DNA of 64,000 nt from a virus (taxonomy: Duplodnaviria > Caudoviricetes): positions 32,001-96,000 of the IMG/VR virus record IMGVR_UViG_3300044694_000082; one strand, written 5' to 3'. The translations under genes were made by a program, and so were the position numbers. The notes beneath the pieces are model-generated. The model was not told the DNA's origin and did not search any database. It saw only the letters and a list, made by a program, of their open reading frames with translations. Positions 2,724-39,002 of this stretch are shown here, in pieces (positions within the stretch are counted from its first letter, which is position 1; the number at the start of each line of letters is the position of its first letter).

Positions 2724-5700
2724 TCAGAAGGGCGGGCAGCACAGGTGGTTGCTGCAGAAGTGCTGCTTGACCAGGCTGACCGGCGGTGGCGGGGCAGGCG
2801 GGTAGTCCGAGGCGGGCTCGGGGTCGTCGTAGAGGTAGGAGGCGTCGCTGCCGTAGTCCGGGCAGACCGGCCCGCTGTACGGGGGGAGCGTGCCGTTGCG
2901 CTCGTGGAAGGCGTACTCCGCGGAGAAGCAGGCGGGGACGCCGAGTTCCTCGGCTTCGGTCATGGTGATCGGTTGCTGGGTCATGGTCAGTCCAGGTAGG
3001 GGTGTCGGAGGCTGGGGTGGACGGCGATGGCGTCGGCCAGAGTGACGACGTTGAGTTCCGTCTCGGCACCTTCGATCAGGGCGATCAACTCCGCCCTGGG
3101 CATGCCTCGCTCTTCGAGCTGCTCGATGGTGAACTTCACGATCCAGGCATGCACCTCGGGGGTGAACTCCTCCTTGTCGAGGGACGCGCCAAGCAGGAAG
3201 ATCAGGTGCAGGCGCTCGACGTCATCCAGCTTCGACCCTGCCGGATTGGGGCCGGAGAGGCGGCGCAGCCTGTCGAGGAGGTGGCCGGGGGCGGATGATG
3301 TGATCACGAAGCCTCCCATGCGGCGATCTCCTCGGGGGTGGCGGGGATCGGCTGGTCACCCTCGTACGGCTCCCACGCCAGTTGGAACATGTAGGGCATC
3401 GTCTCGCGGCGGTACGCGGCTAGCCCGAGGGCGTTGCCCGGGGCGAACTTCGGCAGCTGGCCGTAGTTGTCCTCCCGCTCCTCACGGTCGTGGACCTCGC
3501 ACAGCGGGCTGCCAGGCTTCTTGAACTCACCGCAGTAGATCGACCACGGCAGCCCATAGGCGGTCTGGTAGCCACAGATCTGGCCGCCGCGCCACGGTTC
3601 ACGGGGCAGTGTCTTCATGATGCTTCCTATCTAGTGTCGGTGGCCGGTGTTCCGTGGCCTTCGTGATGATGGTCCGTGAAGCACAGGCCGCAGTACGGAC
3701 GGTGGCAGACACGGCAGAACTGGTCGCTGGACTTCTCACAGCCGAAGCAGGCGTCGGACAACTCGGCCACGTAGCTGGCCTTGGTGCGCCAGCGCAGGCG
3801 GCACATGTCGAACGAACAGCGGACCTCGGAGTAGTGAGAGGGCGTCCGGCGGTAGCCGTTGAACGCTGACGCGTTGTAGTTGCGCATGGTCACCACCCAG
3901 AAGGGGCGGTGACTCTGGTTGCGACAGGCGATGCCACTCATGCGTCACCGGTCCGAGGGTGGGAAGCCGCCGGTCTTCAGGTACGTCTCCGCCCACGGGA
4001 TCAGCTGCTCCATCCGCTTGATCGTCACCTTCACGTGGGTCCGGTCGGTGATCTGTCCGGCGACGACCTGGGCCGCTGCACTCAACGCGGCCTGCCGGAC
4101 CCACTGGGGGTAGGCGTCGTGGTTGCGAGACGGGATGTCGCTCACGTCGTTGCTCCTCGTTGGCAGAGACAGGCCTTGTGGATCTCAGCCAGCGCCGCCT
4201 TCCGCTCGTCGTCGGCTTTGACCGGGTCGATGTTGAAGTACTGATTCAGCGCGTTGCCGGTGGACAGGTAACCCCTCTCGGGGTGCCAGAGGGCGTACCC
4301 CTGATCAGCCGCCCAGTCGAGGAACTCGCCGATGACCTGGCCGTCTTCGCTGTGCTCGGCGATCTTGTCGAGTTCGGGAGTCTCCACGTCACCCCTCCTT
4401 CGGGCGTGCGGCGTGAAGTTCGGAGTTCTGCTTCCGGTTGTGTTCGGCGGCCTCGCGGTTGTAGGCCACCTCGTCGAGGTCGGCGAACAGGTCAGCGTCG
4501 TCGAGGGTGTTGAAGGCCTGCGCTGCGTCGCCCAGCCCCGTGATGCTGGTGTTGTCGTGGAAGCGGAGGGCGAAGCTGCGCAGGGTGGCGAGAGCCTTGA
4601 CTTGCTCTTCGAGGGTGGGCTTGGACATGTCAGTTTCCTCCTGGGTTGAGGGGCTCGGCGTGTTCCAGATAGGCCAGCAGGGAGTCCAGCTCAGCCACGG
4701 TCGGCGTGAAGAACGTGGTCTTGTGGATCGTCCGGGCTCGCCGGAATGCGTCTGTGAGGGTGAACCGCCTGCGCTTGTAGTCCGCGGGGAGTGCCGGTTG
4801 GCCGTTGCGTACGGTCAGTGTGGCGGCGTCGGTGTTGCTCATGATGAAGGGGTAGCGGGTGCTGACCTTGAAGTCGTTGAAGAAGGGCGTGGCCTCCTGC
4901 CCCTCTTGGAGGCTGGCCAGCTTAGCCGCGTCCTCGGCCGACACGACGTGGAACCACACCAGGTGCGTCGTCCCCTTCTCACGGCGAGCCGAGACGACAC
5001 GCGAGGTGTCCAGCACGCTGCGGTAGGTGACAAAGCCCGAACCGGCCGGGAGGTCTGCTGCGTAGCGGCTCAGAACCTCCCATCTCTTGATCAACTCGGG
5101 GTCCTTCAGCCGCAGGAACTTGTAGATGTACGGCCAGGCGAGCCGGGCCATGTCACTTCTCCTTCTTCGGGTCGACATAGAGGGTCGCCGTCGAGCGCTC
5201 GACGGGGTATACCATACTGGTGAGGAGCTGCTCGTACTGGTCGAGCATCTCGTTGCGTTCCGCCTCCTGCTCGGCCTTGTCCAAGACCTCGTCACCGCAG
5301 CGGTAGCCGACCCTGACGAGGTGCAGATCCTTGTCCCAGCTGCATCGGTGACCCCCGAACGCGATGTCCTTGCGGGAGACCCACGGCTTGAACCCCGCAG
5401 TGGTCAGTGTCCGGCCGATGGTAGTGGCGGGGGTGAAGGTGCCGTGCGGCCTGGTCGGGCGGTCGCTGGGCATGTCACTTCTCCTGTTCAACGGTGATGA
5501 CGTAGCCACTGGGGACGGTGCGCCACTCGCCGACGGTGCGCCATCCGGCGTCCGCCAGTAGCTCTCCAGCCTGCTTGACAGCGTCATCGTGATCGCCGGT
5601 GCGTACGTCCACGGTGGTGGTGGCGTAGAAGTACTCCCACTCGTCAGCGTTGGTGGCGTTGGTGTCGAGGACGACGACGTCGCACACATCGGTGGCAACG

Positions 5701-14207: not shown

Positions 14208-14288
14208 GGTGTCGACCTTCCTTGTCGGTGTAGCGTGGTGGCGTCTACGTATCAAAGCCCGGCACGGCGGCAACCGTGCCGGGTTTCG

Positions 14289-14304
14289 TGTTTCACGTGG
14301 AACA
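14289..14304. promoter_or_regulatory. parS-consensus site 7
   Basis: TGTTTCACGTGGAACA 6 bp after stop 14311, next to hairpin AAAGCCCGGCACGG..CCGTGCCGGGTTT (14254-14286). Confidence 0.8.
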
Positions 14305-20849: not shown

Positions 20850-21308
20850 TGTTCCGACCTGTTCCGACCCCCGGAACAGGCCACGGCCAGCGAAGGTAAC
20901 GAACCGATAACGCGTTACCGTTTCGTGATGTTCAAGGTCACGGTTAGGTCACGGCCAGGGAGCGGGGCTCGACCTGGCAGGGAGCGGTGAGGGGGTGGTG
21001 TTCCGAGGGTGTTCCGACCCTGTTCCGGGTCTGTTCCGAGGGGGTCGGAACAGTGTTTTCCCAGGTCAGTGGTGCTTTGTTCCGAGTGTTCCGAGTGTTC
21101 CGAGTAGGAATACAAGTCTTCTAACGCGAGAGGGGTATGTAACGGATGTATATAGGTCACAGATACGTAACGCACACGTACGTATATAAGGGAACCTTCG
21201 AAATACCCGGAACACTCGGAAACCTCGGAACACTTGCGGTCTGACCTGCGAGGATGCTGTTCCGACCCCTCAGAACACGGGTCGGAACACCCCGGAACAC
21301 TCGGAACA
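20850..21308. repeat. iteron-like array (17x TGTTCCG/CGGAACA) forming a large imperfect inverted repeat; putative replication origin
   Basis: Arms ~20999-21105 and ~21205-21308 around an AT-richer spacer with two TATATA; located at a local strand switch. Confidence 0.7.
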
Positions 21309-23314: not shown

Positions 23315-23857
23315 TCAGCCCTTGCACAGAACCTCGGTGTTGATCTTGCTGCCCAGGTAGTAGACCTCCACCCAGCATCCATGCTTGTGGGGCAGGGTGC
23401 GCAGGTTCACGGAGGCCAGACCGGATACGGGGTCGTTGTAGCCCATGCGCAGGCAGTCGCCCTGTGCCGTGTCTGCCACCCAGGCGTTCATGGCCTTGTT
23501 GTTGCGGTACGTGTCGTATGTCATGTCCGTGACCAGTTCGGTTGCCCAGGCGCGGACGCCGCCGTGGCGGGGGGCGTTGGCGCAGATGCTGCGGCGGGTG
23601 TTCATGTCGTCGTGGGTGCGGCGACTGCCCTCGGGGGTGGAGTACCACAGAGCGGCGGCCTGGGCGCGGGTCCCGGTGGTGAGGCAGGCGCGGTCGTAGG
23701 CGGGATCGCCCCGGTGGCCGTGGTGGGCGCAGTCGTAGGCCACGTGGGCGGGGGCGGGGGGTGTCGATGCGTCGGCGGGGGTGGTGGTGGCGAAGGCCAG
23801 GGTGAGCAGTCCCGCGCCGATGCCCGCGAACGCGCGCCGAATGACGTTGAGGTTCAT
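23315..23857 (-). CDS. putative secreted Cys-containing protein
   Basis: MNLNVIRRAFAGIGAGLLTLAFATTTPADA signal peptide with AxA site; 6 Cys. Confidence 0.65.
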   Translation of the reverse strand: MNLNVIRRAFAGIGAGLLTLAFATTTPADASTPPAPAHVAYDCAHHGHRGDPAYDRACLTTGTRAQAAALWYSTPEGSRRTHDDMNTRRSICANAPRHGGVRAWATELVTDMTYDTYRNNKAMNAWVADTAQGDCLRMGYNDPVSGLASVNLRTLPHKHGCWVEVYYLGSKINTEVLCKG

Positions 23858-23984: not shown

Positions 23985-24470
23985 TCAGGTGGTGGCGCAG
24001 TCCGCGCACCATTTGTCACCACTCGTGTGTCGCGCGCATGCGTAGCAGTGTGTGTCCGCCACGCATCCCTCCACCGTGCACGGACCGTCATCGGGTGTGC
24101 TGGCCTGGTCGTCTGCTTCGGCCGCGATGGTGTCGCAGTCGCATCCCTCCCCGTTCAGGTGGCCGCACGGCAGGTTGAGAGACCAGGCCGCGCCGATACA
24201 GGGAATGGAGTACATGACATCTCCGGGCGGAGGTGCCAGCTCGGCCAACCGCACACGCACGGTGTGCGTGGTCGCGCACTCGGCGTCATCGGGGTCATCC
24301 ATGAACTCGACCAAGTACGCCCCGCAGCACCGCCACACGAGACGTACGCGCCCGTACAGGCCGGTTTCGGGAACGTGGACCGGACGGCCAGGGTCGGCCC
24401 ACGCAGGACCGTCCAGCGCACCGAGGGGCGCGCCATCGGTGTCACACTGATGAATGCTGTAACTGCCCAT
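23985..24470 (-). CDS. Cys-rich hypothetical protein
   Basis: MGSYSIHQC.. after AAGGGAG RBS. Confidence 0.55.
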   Translation of the reverse strand: MGSYSIHQCDTDGAPLGALDGPAWADPGRPVHVPETGLYGRVRLVWRCCGAYLVEFMDDPDDAECATTHTVRVRLAELAPPPGDVMYSIPCIGAAWSLNLPCGHLNGEGCDCDTIAAEADDQASTPDDGPCTVEGCVADTHCYACARHTSGDKWCADCATT

Positions 24471-24568
24471 GTGTGTCTCCCTTACTGAGTAGGCCAGGAC
24501 CGGGCGGCCTGACGCAACGCACGTGCCCGCAGGGGGCCGTGCGCTGCGACCACTGCCCGGGGGCCGGG

Positions 24569-25126
24569 TCACTTGCTGGCCTTGCCGTTGCCCTGACGGG
24601 CCAGACGCGCGGCCATCCGACGCTGAGCCGTGGCACAGGCCCGGTAGCGACGCTGAGCAGCCTTGGTGCGCTTGGCAGGCTCACGCTGCACAGCCTCATG
24701 GTCGAAACGCTCCCGACCCAGGTTCCCGGACATCGTGTTGGAAACCGGCTTGTCGCCCTTGCGTTCACGCGGTCCGGTGATCTTGGTAGCGTCCATGGCG
24801 CGGCCACGGACCAGGACCGGACCCCGACCGTGACCGGTCGTCACCACCGGGTCGGCAACGCCACCCATGGGCAGCGGCTCTTGCCCAGCGCGGATCTTGG
24901 CACCCATGATCTCTCGGCGGAGCATGGCGTCACGGGGGTCACCGACGCGGGCCCCCTCGTCCGTGAGCGGAACCTGAGGGCCCTCCCCCAGGTCAATCGG
25001 CACCTTGTGCGCGGCCACGAAACCCTTGCCAGTCAGCTTGACCTTGGGTGCGCGGCACTCCGGGCACGACCCGTCAGGGTTCGGCTTGCGCTTCAGCTTG
25101 CCAGTGATCTTGCAGTTCATGTTCAT
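24569..25126 (-). CDS. basic protein with zinc ribbon and C-terminal Arg-rich helix (candidate RNA-binding antiterminator)
   Basis: CPECR..H N-terminus; KRTKAAQRRYRACATAQRRMAARLAR; RBS GAGGGAG. Confidence 0.6.
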   Translation of the reverse strand: MNMNCKITGKLKRKPNPDGSCPECRAPKVKLTGKGFVAAHKVPIDLGEGPQVPLTDEGARVGDPRDAMLRREIMGAKIRAGQEPLPMGGVADPVVTTGHGRGPVLVRGRAMDATKITGPRERKGDKPVSNTMSGNLGRERFDHEAVQREPAKRTKAAQRRYRACATAQRRMAARLARQGNGKASK

Positions 25127-25149
25127 GATCGTTTCTCCCTCATTTTCCA

Positions 25150-25669
25150 TTGACGGGTCGGGGCGGGGGTTGACGCACTCCGGCCGAAACCGGGGGTTGA
25201 CACACTCCGCCCCGACGCACTGTCTTGCGACCCGTTCGCTAAGCGTCCGGGCCTTGCCCCAGGGAACGGCTTGCTAGGCCGCACCCCGGAGAAACGTTGG
25301 CGTATCCCTGGACACACTCCCGCGTAGCATGCGCACGACTCCCGTCGCTGAACGCTTAGCCCTCACGCATCTCACAGGTACCGACGCACTCCGAAAAACC
25401 GGGGGTCGGGCCGCTCGACCGTGGGCAGGGGGTCCCGAGCACAGGACGCACCTGTGCTTACAAGGGATCTTGACTCACTGTTCAGTTAACAATGGGCACG
25501 ACGTGCCCGCGCATGTCCCGACCAAGGGACGTTCTGTCGACGCACTCACCCTCCGGGGAGGGCGGGGTCAACCGCCGTCGGTAAAGCTGGGGGTGACACG
25601 TGGTCACCATGGGAACCGGTACAGGACCGGCACCCGTGGCAACCCCGGTAACCGGGGCGCCCCGTAGGG
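25150..25669 (-). ncRNA. putative structured leader / ncRNA with repeated GUG(C/U/A)GUC motifs and boxA-like element
   Basis: No credible CDS; many hairpins, 8 motif copies, UUCG loop readable on the minus strand. Confidence 0.55.
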
Positions 25670-26098
25670 CTAGGCAGAGACGCTCTCCCTGTGCGCCCGT
25701 TCCATGGTCATCAGGGTCATGGCCAGGTCACGGAGGGACTGGAGGCCCAAGGCTCCGGCATCGGCCAGCATGCTGGCCAGGGTGTCGGGGGTGGACTCCG
25801 ACAGGCGCACCATGGCGTCGAGTGCCAGCCTGCGCTGGCGTCCCGTCATGCCCTCCGCCCCACCCTGGCCCTTGTCGATCATGGACCAGGCTTGCAGGTA
25901 GGCGCCCGACTCGGCCAGGGTGGGGACCGGGTACGGGTCACGCCCCACGCTGGCCACAGCGTCGATCACACGACCCAGCTTGGTGAAGTGATCATCCTCG
26001 GACTCGCCCGGGGTGGGGATCATCGACGGAGCCTCATTGATCACCATCTTGGGGCGCCTGGCGATCTTGCGCAGCACGGAGCTAGGGCTGGCCTTCAT
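25670..26098 (-). CDS. hypothetical protein
   Basis: 142 aa, GAGAGGA RBS; TAGACT -10-like hexamer upstream (~26174-26179). Confidence 0.6.
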   Translation of the reverse strand: MKASPSSVLRKIARRPKMVINEAPSMIPTPGESEDDHFTKLGRVIDAVASVGRDPYPVPTLAESGAYLQAWSMIDKGQGGAEGMTGRQRRLALDAMVRLSESTPDTLASMLADAGALGLQSLRDLAMTLMTMERAHRESVSA

Positions 26099-27033
26099 GA
26101 TCTTGATCCTCTCGGTCGGTCCTGCGGTGGTGGTGCCCGGGGCCGGTGGCCCCTTCTCTCTTGCTCTGCCCCTAGTCTACACCCTGACGGCCCGATTGGG
26201 GCACGGAAAGGGCACGAGGAGGTCACGGTTAGGTCACGACTGGATGAGCGGGGTGGTGCTCAGATGAGCGCTCACATGATCGATGAGCCGCTCACCTGAG
26301 CGGAGGGGATTAAAGATGCAAATCGGACATCTCTGACAATTACCTCAAAAGCGTACAAATCGGGCGGGTCGGTACCGTGAGAAATATATGGGTCAGTACA
26401 ACCTATAGCGATCCCGACAAATGCCACATATCACCCCGGCCCCCTCCGGTGCTTCCCGCCCACCTCGATCACCACGTGCGGACACCCCGGACACGAGTAC
26501 AGCCGCTGCGTGCCGATCCACCGCCAGCCCAGCCACCACAGCTCCTTGTAGCCCCCAGGACCGGGCTCGGGCAGCAGGACACCACACCGTCTGCAGTGAG
26601 GCCCCTCAGGGCCGCTGTGGCCGCTCATGGCCGCCAGGGTAGAGGATGCCGTCCGGGTCCCGCCGTCGGACGGCCGCTCCAGGGTCACCGGCGCCCGACC
26701 CTCCAACAGATCCACCGACACCGGTACATGGCGAGAGCTACGTGAGGCGCGTGCTGCGCAGTCACGCACGGGACGCCTCTGTCCAGCAGGTTACCGCGAG
26801 CATCGTCTGCACACCGTAGAATTCCTGCCCGCGGCGGCTACCGGAACAGCCGCCGTCCCGCCTTCCGCCCGGCTCCGTGCTCTGGTCGCCGGGCGGTCGT
26901 GCGTTTGCGGCCGGGCAACCCCCACGCTTACGGCGGTCCAGCGGCCGTCATGCCTGCCGGGCCCCACGCTTACGGCGGCGCGAGCCCGTCGCATACGGCG
27001 GCTCCTACGGTATTGACGGATCGGGTTATCGCC

Positions 27034-27266
27034 TCATGCCGCTGCGGGCTCCTCGCCCCACAGCCGCTCCATCAGCACCGAGCCGATGTGGCCGTGTTCG
27101 GCAAGGTACTCCAGCGCGTCGCCGTGGATGAAGGTGACGCCTTCTGGGCGGTTGCGTGCGGGGATGGGGCGGATGTCGACGCCGGTGACGTCGAACCCGC
27201 CAGCTGGTAGCCGTACCCGGCACCGTACTGGCCGCAGAACAGGTCCAGCAGGCGTGGCCGTGACAT
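27034..27266 (-). pseudogene. degraded C5-cytosine DNA methyltransferase
   Basis: MSRPRLLDLFCGQYGAGYGYQLAG / 1-nt frameshift / FDVTGVDI..FIHGDALEYLAEHGH, then joins a C-terminus-like tail; PC catalytic motif missing. Confidence 0.75.
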
Positions 27267-27348
27267 GAGAACACCCCCTGCGATCTTTGATTCGATCGTA
27301 GGGGGTGCAATGTGTCTTGTAATCCAAGACGCCAGGGCGCGGAGGTGG

Positions 27349-37718: not shown

Positions 37719-38254
37719 ACGCCCTTCTCCAGCTCCTCGTAGGCGTGACGGGCCTTGTGGTGGATACGCCCCATGGTGGACACGATGGCGGACCCCAGGA
37801 GACCGATCAGGATGGCGGAGTTCATGCCCGTGTCGATGCTGTGCCGGTAGGCGTGCCACATGTGGTGACCGAGAGCGATGGGTGCCACCATGGACAGCAA
37901 GAGGGCGGTGAAACCGCTGCCCACCAGCCACTTCCCGGCCTTCGTCAGAACACGTCCGTCCTTGGGCGTGATGGGGTGCGCACGGTTGGCCGCCACGTTG
38001 ACCTCGATGCGCCACAGCGCGTAGCTGGTGTACGCCAGGGCGGCGCCGATGATCGCTGTGGGCGCCACCGTGGCGACGAGCGCCTGCCAGGGCATGGACA
38101 CGCCGGTGGCTGTCAGCGTGTATCCCGCGGGCATCAGCGGCATCATCCACAGGAACACGTGCTCCATGCGCTTCTCCCTAAACCACCGCTTGCTGCCCAC
38201 GGGCGCGGGCTCATCGGTGAACCACTGACGCTTGGTCGCCGGACTTCCTGACAT
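37715..38254 (-). CDS. 4-TM membrane protein (DUF2975-like)
   Basis: Four hydrophobic segments, ..ELEKGV end, coupled to YozG-like HTH. Confidence 0.6.
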   Translation of the reverse strand: MSGSPATKRQWFTDEPAPVGSKRWFREKRMEHVFLWMMPLMPAGYTLTATGVSMPWQALVATVAPTAIIGAALAYTSYALWRIEVNVAANRAHPITPKDGRVLTKAGKWLVGSGFTALLLSMVAPIALGHHMWHAYRHSIDTGMNSAILIGLLGSAIVSTMGRIHHKARHAYEELEKGV

Positions 38255-38299
38255 AGCTGTCCCCTCAACTTCCTTGTCGTGCGGTGCTGATGCATCCAC

Positions 38300-38345
38300 A
38301 GTACCCCATCGCATGGGGTACTCACACCATTTCTTGGGTTACCCA
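38300..38345. promoter_or_regulatory. palindromes in the divergent early/late intergenic region
   Basis: AGTACCCCAT-CGC-ATGGGGTACT (38300-38322), TGGGTTACCCA (38335-38345). Confidence 0.5.
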
Positions 38346-38381
38346 CACCATCTGTGGACTTCCTCGGCAGGAGACCACCCC

Positions 38382-39002
38382 ATGAGCGACGAGCTGTCCT
38401 TCGGCGAGCGCCCCCTCATCACCGACGAGGACGACGATTTCCTTCCCGCCGAGAGGCCCGACGGCTACCCCGCCTACCACAACTACAAGCGGGACAGGGA
38501 AGCGGTCCGCCTCAAGGCCATGGGCTACGCGCCCGAGGAGATCGCCGAGAAGCTCGGCCTCACCAGCGACCGCGCCGGAGGCCCCGACCCCCAGCGCGCC
38601 ATCGCCGCCATCAAACGCGGCACCGCACTCCTGCACACCGTCGCCACCGACGAGAAACGCCTCGAACAGCTCCAGGCCTACGAGATGATGAAGCGGCACA
38701 TCTGGGAGTCCATCGACAAGGAACACGTCCTCGTCCAGCAGGGCAAGGTCGTCTTCCAGGACGGCGTCCCCGTCGAGGACCGCCGCTTCGCCCTCGAAGC
38801 CTTCGACCGGCTCAACCGGATCGAGGAATCGATCTCCAAGCTGCTCGGCACCCACGCCGCCCAGCGCTTCTCCGTCGAGGCCGACCAGCTCGGCTCGGAG
38901 ATCAGCGAACTCATCGCCATGATCAACAACACCGACACCATCACCGCGACCACCGAACGCCTCGACCGCCCGGCCCTCGAAGCAGGAGACGGCGATGCTT
39001 GA
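38382..39002 (+). CDS. putative terminase small subunit (HTH)
   Basis: AVRLKAMGYAPEEIAEKLGL HTH, ..IEESISKLLG; first gene of the rightward module. Confidence 0.6.
   Translation: MSDELSFGERPLITDEDDDFLPAERPDGYPAYHNYKRDREAVRLKAMGYAPEEIAEKLGLTSDRAGGPDPQRAIAAIKRGTALLHTVATDEKRLEQLQAYEMMKRHIWESIDKEHVLVQQGKVVFQDGVPVEDRRFALEAFDRLNRIEESISKLLGTHAAQRFSVEADQLGSEISELIAMINNTDTITATTERLDRPALEAGDGDA

Follow-up and report, generated by a model that had tools for sequence, protein, structure and literature searches.

Genome setting and the question raised by the locus

The locus analyzed here raises the question of how a long, hairpin-dense, untranslated RNA and the small, very basic protein encoded directly after it work together in a large phage, and whether a short string within that RNA that resembles the boxA element of ribosomal RNA (rrn) leaders marks it as an antitermination site. 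The window, a stretch of 64,000 nt, comprises bases 32001–96000 of a 104,344-bp IMG/VR virus record (approximately 66% GC), and its source is an uncultured 104-kb actinophage. On the plus strand, a terminase, a ClpP-type head protease and a tape-measure-sized gene follow from about 38 kb; on the minus strand, small genes run leftwards from about 37.3 kb to the end of the record. Since the leftward array starts at about 37.3 kb, the cassette lies about 12 kb into it, with about 57 kb still downstream.

Searches of 50,697 phage records, at the DNA level and by tblastn with the region and three family members as queries, found no relative in cultured phages, and IMG/VR protein and profile scans returned no relative of the protein. 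No prophage was found in the 401 Actinomycetota genomes searched, and exact leader patterns searched against viral and genome contigs gave chance matches only, in unrelated taxa. The comparison of leaders presented below is based on two independent loci, the window and contig L003, the latter being near-identical to contig L002.

Co-inheritance of the leader and the downstream gene

L002 and L003 are Hainich groundwater contigs that encode a protein 37–38% identical to that of the window. In L003, a non-coding leader of 695 nt (4307–5001) precedes the gene and a hairpin follows it. Only the leader, the gene and the post-gene hairpin are conserved between the window and L003; the flanking ORFs on both sides are unrelated. 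The two leaders align over their full length, with common blocks consisting of GCCGGUCCUGU, two hairpins before an AU-richer patch, the series A.CUGAA.A.UG ... AGAUCC ... UAAG, and ACGCCAACGUU. The first-pass annotation had treated the leader and the first gene downstream as belonging together, and their co-inheritance in L003 amid unrelated neighbours bears this out.

As a separate feature of L003, the segment 4300–4800 is rich in GATC, with 13 occurrences in one 500-nt bin versus 1–6 elsewhere on the contig; the window leader has two. This cluster may represent a methylation or SeqA-type signal specific to that phage.

The leader RNA and its covarying 3' domain

The third-position GC excess of the flanking genes is absent from positions 25151–25669 on the minus strand, which identifies these 519 nt as non-coding. 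This untranslated, hairpin-dense leader RNA has no codon bias, and it matched none of the Rfam 15 covariance models even at E ≤ 10, the only match in the window being a tRNA.

The best-defined structure is a 3' domain (25127–25305, minus strand) composed of the ACGCCAACGUU block, two short hairpins and a long terminal hairpin. In hairpin A (25259–25289), the loop CCUAGCA is kept and 7 of 12 pairs are compensatory. In hairpin B (25229–25253; GACGCUUAGCGAA), GACGCUU.GCGAA is kept while the outer stem covaries, and the long terminal hairpin (25157–25216), which carries copies 5–7 of the repeated word described below, covaries as well. RNAalifold assigned 14 of 45 pairs in the domain as compensatory, and the same architecture appeared in separate folds of the window and of L003. 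Measured against column-shuffled alignments, the consensus energy of the domain gave z scores of -5.2 and -6.6 on the sense strand, versus -2.1 and -4.1 on the antisense strand. The 5' and middle parts of the leader showed no significant consensus structure in the alignments used, so that hairpin homology there is tentative; a MAFFT realignment of the middle part was misaligned and gave no structure signal.

The closing helix of the domain, 9 bp long, covers the Shine–Dalgarno sequence and spacer. Its upstream strand, CGUUUCUCC (25288–25296, minus strand), directly follows the conserved ACGCCAACGUU block and is the perfect complement of GGAGAAACG at 25130–25138; the helix is present in both the minimum free energy (MFE) and centroid folds of the window. 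For L003, a 6-bp pairing can be drawn by eye between UUCCUG, which follows that conserved block, and CAGGAA before the start codon; it is in another register and absent from the MFE fold.

A repeated word clustered in the leader

Seven of the ten minus-strand copies of GTG[CT]GTC in the genome lie inside the 519-nt leader, leaving three in the other 103.8 kb. The longer form AGTG[CT]GTC occurs six times in the leader, always on the minus strand. Most copies sit just 3' of small GC hairpins. Copy 1 (GAGUGCGUC, 25539–25547) immediately follows the hairpin CCCUCC-CC-GGAGGG; copy 2 (GUGCGUC, 25445–25451) occupies the loop of the hairpin GCACAGG/CCUGUGC; copy 3 (GAGUGCGUC, 25383–25391) lies 3' of the small hairpin CCG-GUUUUU-CGG, within CCGAC/GUCGG; and copy 4 reads GAGUGUGUC (25311–25319). 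Copies 5–7 (25214–25220, 25199–25207 and 25172–25180) belong to the terminal hairpin, where two of them face each other across an internal loop.

L003 instead carries (C/A)(U/A)GUGCAG(C) as its word. Five of the seven copies on that contig are in the leader, at equivalent places, and here too the internal loop of the terminal hairpin has two copies on opposite sides. The word thus differs in all copies at once with the architecture kept, as expected for a co-evolving trans-acting binder. Its embedding in RNA helices that covary speaks for RNA, not DNA, as the form in which it is recognized. Pairing of the word with the phage tRNA-Trp was considered and rejected, the two having no complementarity.

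The zinc-knuckle, Arg-rich protein

The gene downstream of the leader occupies an ORF at 24569–25150 (minus strand). Its likely start is the ATG at 25126, 8 nt after GAGGGAG, as in the homologues, giving a 185-aa basic protein (24569–25126) whose CCCH zinc knuckle is followed by a disordered middle region and, at residues 155–179, by an Arg-rich C-terminal helix. Its very basic character, already remarked upon in the first-pass annotation, is evident from a pI of 10.8 and from the last 35 residues, which contain 12 K/R and no D/E and include KRTKAAQRRYRACATAQRRMAARLAR.

Protein relatives comprise 28 near sequences and 64 clusters at 50% identity, all metagenomic. Across the family, the invariant or near-invariant residues of the zinc knuckle are C5, C21-P-x-C24 and H40; the conserved linear motifs are TDEG.RVGDPRDA, TTGHGRGP.LVRGR and G.LGRER; and the basic tail carries a recurring R(S/T)..Q(R/K)(R/K)Y(R/W). 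The AlphaFold (AF2) model has an N-terminal knuckle at pLDDT ~85, a helix at 64–79, a disordered segment at 94–138 and a confident helix at 155–179. The N-terminal part modelled alone was poor (pLDDT 62).

Pfam, PHROG and NCBIfam gave no match for this protein, and the longer relatives likewise carry no Pfam domain. A profile of 20 relatives searched against PDB sequences matched no entry, including no N chain at E ≤ 1. Foldseek and VIA-align returned single-helix matches only, and the ESM Atlas returned nothing above 0.81. Three longer relatives (P0032, P0039 and P0048) have in common an insert of about 60 residues (GTVKIPVKG..GR.KL..VPATE.NVR.ALAYW) between conserved motifs; the family has a modular build centred on short linear motifs.

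Promoter, upstream ORF and post-gene hairpin

The leader follows an upstream 142-aa ORF (25670–26098, minus strand; GC3 ~0.9) with no Pfam, PHROG or NCBIfam match. This ORF lies outside the conserved cassette and does not resemble its positional counterpart in L003. Upstream of it, TAGACT (26174–26179, minus strand) is a -10-like hexamer and, in a regex search, the only minus-strand TANNNT between 26260 and 25127. We infer from its sequence and position that it is the promoter of a unit composed of the 142-aa ORF, the leader and the Zn/Arg protein; a strict sigma-70 scan of 24300–26300 called no promoter. L003 has TANNNT hexamers at 3764 and 3769, upstream of its own, non-homologous ORF. Since such hexamers precede the preceding ORF in both phages and none occurs in the window leader, the leader is probably transcribed as part of the operon.

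A nested hairpin follows the stop codon of the protein gene (24480–24568, minus strand; inner stem 24514–24547); it contains the conserved CGUUGCGU.AGGCCG and has no U-tract. It is conserved in L003 (5562–5637), with a consensus-structure z of -5.7 in the column-shuffle test, and is a candidate weak terminator or processing site. The conserved ribosome-binding site GGGAGACA(C)ACAUG of the next gene comes after the hairpin in both phages, the next genes themselves not being detectably homologous. The hairpin together with this site may constitute a separate regulatory element (24480–24568; 5562–5637 in L003). Stable folding was confirmed for the three terminator-like hairpins proposed earlier, with z scores of -2.8 (24514–24547), -3.6 (14254–14286) and -4.9 (1518–1556).

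A putative leader switch proposed to bind its own protein

Taken together, the ~520-base leader and the small zinc-binding, Arg-rich protein are probably an RNA–protein control switch. An RNA of 520–700 nt with 6–7 repeats and a helix over the ribosome-binding site goes far beyond a nut site, which suggests in the first place that the gene controls its own expression. In the reading that we tentatively favour, while giving it somewhat less than an even chance, the gene product recognizes the repeated words in the leader of its own mRNA and regulates its expression through the helix over the ribosome-binding site. Under this scheme, the promoter-distal, folded leader of ~520 nt would display seven (A)GUG(C/U)GUC words, and the Zn/Arg protein would bind them, several copies per RNA. 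Binding would stabilize or remodel the 3' domain with its several hairpins and its closing helix over the Shine–Dalgarno sequence. The protein would thereby feed back on its own translation, and it might also affect the fate of the transcript at the post-gene hairpin. We infer both the identity of the binder, namely the Zn/Arg protein, and the translational-feedback output.

Several sequence features suggest feedback: the clustering and strand bias of the words, their concerted change, the sense-strand covariation, the co-inheritance and the 9-bp Shine–Dalgarno helix. The predicted structure, a basic protein with a confident Arg-rich helix and a zinc knuckle, also suggests it. That a remote leader site can exert feedback has a precedent in lambda N, which represses its own translation through nutL approximately 200 nt upstream (PMC5725501). 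Against the feedback reading, seven sites and 520–700 nt exceed the needs of simple autoregulation, the Shine–Dalgarno helix of L003 is in another register and not in the MFE fold, the 5' and middle leader lack significant consensus structure, and the comparison involves two independent loci. With known autoregulatory leaders, such as those of ribosomal-protein operons and T4 translational repressors, the cassette has in common a helix over the Shine–Dalgarno sequence, co-inheritance of leader and gene, and a basic protein. It differs in that the phage leader is much larger, carries many repeats and shows no mimicry of a known primary target; binding here is putative.

If the pairing of leader and protein is true, both the RNA and its RNA-binding partner would found new families whose recognition code can be read, and the fact that the word differs between the two phages with the architecture kept suits a specificity-swap test. 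To our knowledge, the control of very long early transcription units in large lytic actinophages is almost unstudied, and the switch, if true, would open this question. Autoregulation alone would still leave an unusually large and repetitive leader.

The 17-nt string and antitermination

The first-pass annotation had proposed an N/nut-like antitermination system on the basis of a boxA-like string in the leader. The string, TTGTTAACTGAACAGTG, is located as claimed on the minus strand (25492–25476). It lies in the least GC-rich patch of the leader and, in a single-sequence fold, is predicted to be mostly paired in a weak 7-bp hairpin. On one side it is flanked by the hairpin GGGCAC-GUC-GUGCCC and on the other by a covarying hairpin; the hairpin just downstream of the AU-richer patch has a z of -3.1 in the column-shuffle test. 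Folds around the patch contain no GNRNA pentaloop (boxB-type) hairpin, the flanking loops being GUC and UGCGU.

Reference rrn leaders were taken from Actinomycetota genomes, in which the elements lie approximately 170–190 nt before 16S. The Streptomyces-type leader contains CCTTGAGAACTCAACAGCGTGCC and GTTCCTTGAGAACTCAACAGCGTG, the mycobacterial-type leader TGTTTGAGAACTCAATAGTGTG and GTTGTTTGAGAACTCAATAGTGTG. In large Actinomycetota genomes, GAGAACTCAAYAG has multiple copies per genome, with a control pattern near zero. The first 11 nt of the actinobacterial element are the counterpart of E. coli boxA, the NusB/NusE site, and agree by eye at 9 of 11 positions with GYTCTTTAANA, the gamma-proteobacterial boxA consensus (PMC5725501). 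The sequence CUCAAYAG falls in the NusA-binding boxC region described for the M. tuberculosis rrn leader (PMC2724277).

Measured against these references, the claimed likeness to rrn boxA did not hold up. The boxA half of the string (GTTCCTTGAGA) agrees by eye with the Streptomyces-type rrn boxA at 6 of 11 positions, or 4 of 11 at the aligned place in L003, and the string agrees with the gamma-proteobacterial GYTCTTTAANA at 6 of 11, also by eye. The second half fits well (AACU.AACAG), and AACUGAACAGUG agrees with the rrn GAACUCAAYAGYG core at 11 of 13 positions, but this remainder is within chance genome-wide. For the 13-nt core GAACTCAAYAGYG, five sites in the 104-kb genome score 11/13, the window site among them, and the 9/13 site of L003 is one of 25 such sites on its contig. 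The best genome match to the Streptomyces 30-mer is indeed the window site (20/30); shuffled queries reached at least 20/30 in 50 of 300 trials (p ~0.17). Compared with Actinomycetota rrn leaders (boxA GTT(C/G)(C/T)TTGAGAA, then CTCAAYAG; PMC2724277), the phage patch is similar in its 11/13 core and in lying where a long untranslated RNA is less rich in GC, and it differs in lacking the U-rich boxA part and any 16S context, with a match at chance level that falls to 9/13 in L003.

Conservation of the motif next to a homologue was found only in part. At the aligned place in L003, A.CUGAA.A.UG followed by AGAUCC and UAAG is kept. One aligned triplet in the patch is ACA, the Streptomyces type, in the window and AUA, the mycobacterial type, in L003. 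Within this large cis-acting leader RNA, the 17-nt string makes up a single short patch that is partly conserved, and its sequence likeness to rrn is suggestive through its location alone, not in itself.

Three further candidates were rejected at this patch. An identical AACTGAACAGTG in an Acidimicrobiales MAG was judged to be chance because no rRNA adjoins it. A promoter within the patch was discarded, the window leader having no TANNNT and the TACTGT of L003 not being conserved. A conserved upstream ORF ending at the UGA in the patch was likewise set aside: the frame is open in both leaders, but without codon bias, and the encoded peptides are unrelated.

Alternative explanations

Processive antitermination of the N/nut kind, in which host factors (NusA on the AACUGAACAG patch) join the leader and the Arg-rich protein in altering RNA polymerase, is in our view rather unlikely. 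So altered, the polymerase would read past the weak post-gene terminator and the numerous hairpins encountered over ~57 kb of leftward genes, and translational feedback could coexist, as in lambda. The order promoter, small ORF, leader, protein and conserved hairpin does head a very long co-directional array, and long untranslated RNA in an operon requires protection from Rho, as the leader would. With its small size, basic character, mostly disordered chain, conserved linear motifs and Arg-rich helix, the protein is N-like in style, and that part of the earlier proposal stands. The 11/13 likeness of the AU-richer patch to the rrn GAACUCAAYAG box, within the NusA-binding boxC region of M. tuberculosis (PMC2724277), and the ACA/AUA exchange between the two phages at the aligned place also speak for it. 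Against the proposal, the boxA half is mismatched, the boxC-like match has four equals in the genome, shuffled queries score as high in 17% of trials, the Arg-rich helix is C-terminal, no boxB-type pentaloop is present and the protein has no homology to N. Moreover, the RNA exceeds a nut site more than tenfold in size, and it is a single site in the genome, with none at other operons.

The same balance emerges from direct comparison with lambda N/nutL. In both systems, a leader element precedes a small, basic, disordered protein with an Arg-rich helix, a hairpin directly follows the gene, and a long co-directional early array lies downstream. The two have no sequence relation, and the phage leader has no boxA match. 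The boxB-binding Arg-rich motif of N is N-terminal, whereas the phage protein has its helix at residues 155–179 of 185 and a zinc knuckle at the N-terminus. The lambda nut site spans approximately 40 nt, in contrast to 520–700 nt with 6–7 words at the one site here, and nutL lies directly after pL, whereas the phage leader follows a first ORF.

A more elaborate version, which we consider distinctly unlikely, is an actinophage antitermination particle: the 0.5–0.7-kb leader, bearing several copies of the Zn/Arg protein via the 8-nt word plus host NusA on the rrn-like patch, would ride the polymerase through ~57 kb of early genes and also throttle its own translation. We know of no such phage antitermination system described in Actinomycetota. 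Such a particle would do the work of lambda N/nut with unrelated components, and if antitermination is true, this would be the first N-like system outside lambdoid proteobacterial phages.

It is improbable that the leader is instead a stand-alone large non-coding RNA, serving as a scaffold or as a decoy that titrates a host RNA-binding protein, with a link to the Zn/Arg protein that is merely positional or that of a chaperone. Its 520–700 nt, many hairpins and 6–7 words do resemble a multi-site sponge or the large phage RNAs, and it matches no known RNA family. Like ROOL, GOLLD and HK022 put, it is a long, hairpin-rich phage RNA without a known catalytic or coding role; unlike them, it has no Rfam match, is fused to a ribosome-binding site and is paired with a dedicated protein family. 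The leader has no promoter-like hexamer of its own, no terminator separates it from the gene, and its 3' domain runs into the ribosome-binding site. Its co-inheritance with the gene also weighs against a free-standing role, as does the difference of the word between the phages, since a host target would tend to fix the word (the hosts may differ). There is, in addition, a small chance that the explanation lies outside those considered here.

Finally, it is less probable still that the repeats act at the DNA level, as co-oriented operator, roadblock or iteron sites through which a DNA-binding protein, perhaps the Zn/Arg protein, would control transcription or replication: the 9–13 bp direct repeats GGAGTG(C/T)GTC(A/G)AC do share one orientation and a basic helix could bind DNA, but their spacing is irregular (15–97 nt), the words lie beside covarying hairpins and opposed across an internal loop in both phages, the structure signal is greater on the sense strand, and copies are not scattered through the genome (3 of 10 same-strand 7-mers outside the leader). 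The asymmetric, co-oriented repressor sites of mycobacteriophage L5, known as stoperators, offer a resemblance that we treat as a lead only. As for an iteron origin, no AT-rich unwinding element adjoins the repeats: GC content is 58–71% in 100-nt bins throughout the leader, with no AT-rich segment, compared with a drop to 45% at 21100–21199.

Additional features of the window

Several features elsewhere in the window were recorded. The gene after the cassette (23985–24470, minus strand) encodes a Cys-rich 161-aa protein, and the product of the next gene on (23315–23857) has a signal-peptide-like N-terminus; neither matched a family. At 14235–14300 (minus strand), CACGUGAAAC, half of a parS-type palindrome, stands directly before the terminator-like hairpin at 14254–14286. 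At 27034–27327 (minus strand), two overlapping ORFs in different frames resemble parts of one DNA methyltransferase (LLDLFCG..G.G, then GVDI...FIHGDALEYL), an arrangement that suggests a frameshift; neither has a Pfam match. The first rightward gene (38232–39002, plus strand) has no Pfam match; PHROG links it weakly to 'Rnase E' (phrog_645, E 3e-6), and its product is 52% identical to that of the L003 ORF at the same divergent position. A candidate RNA-processing enzyme in the same phage as a large-RNA cassette may be of interest.
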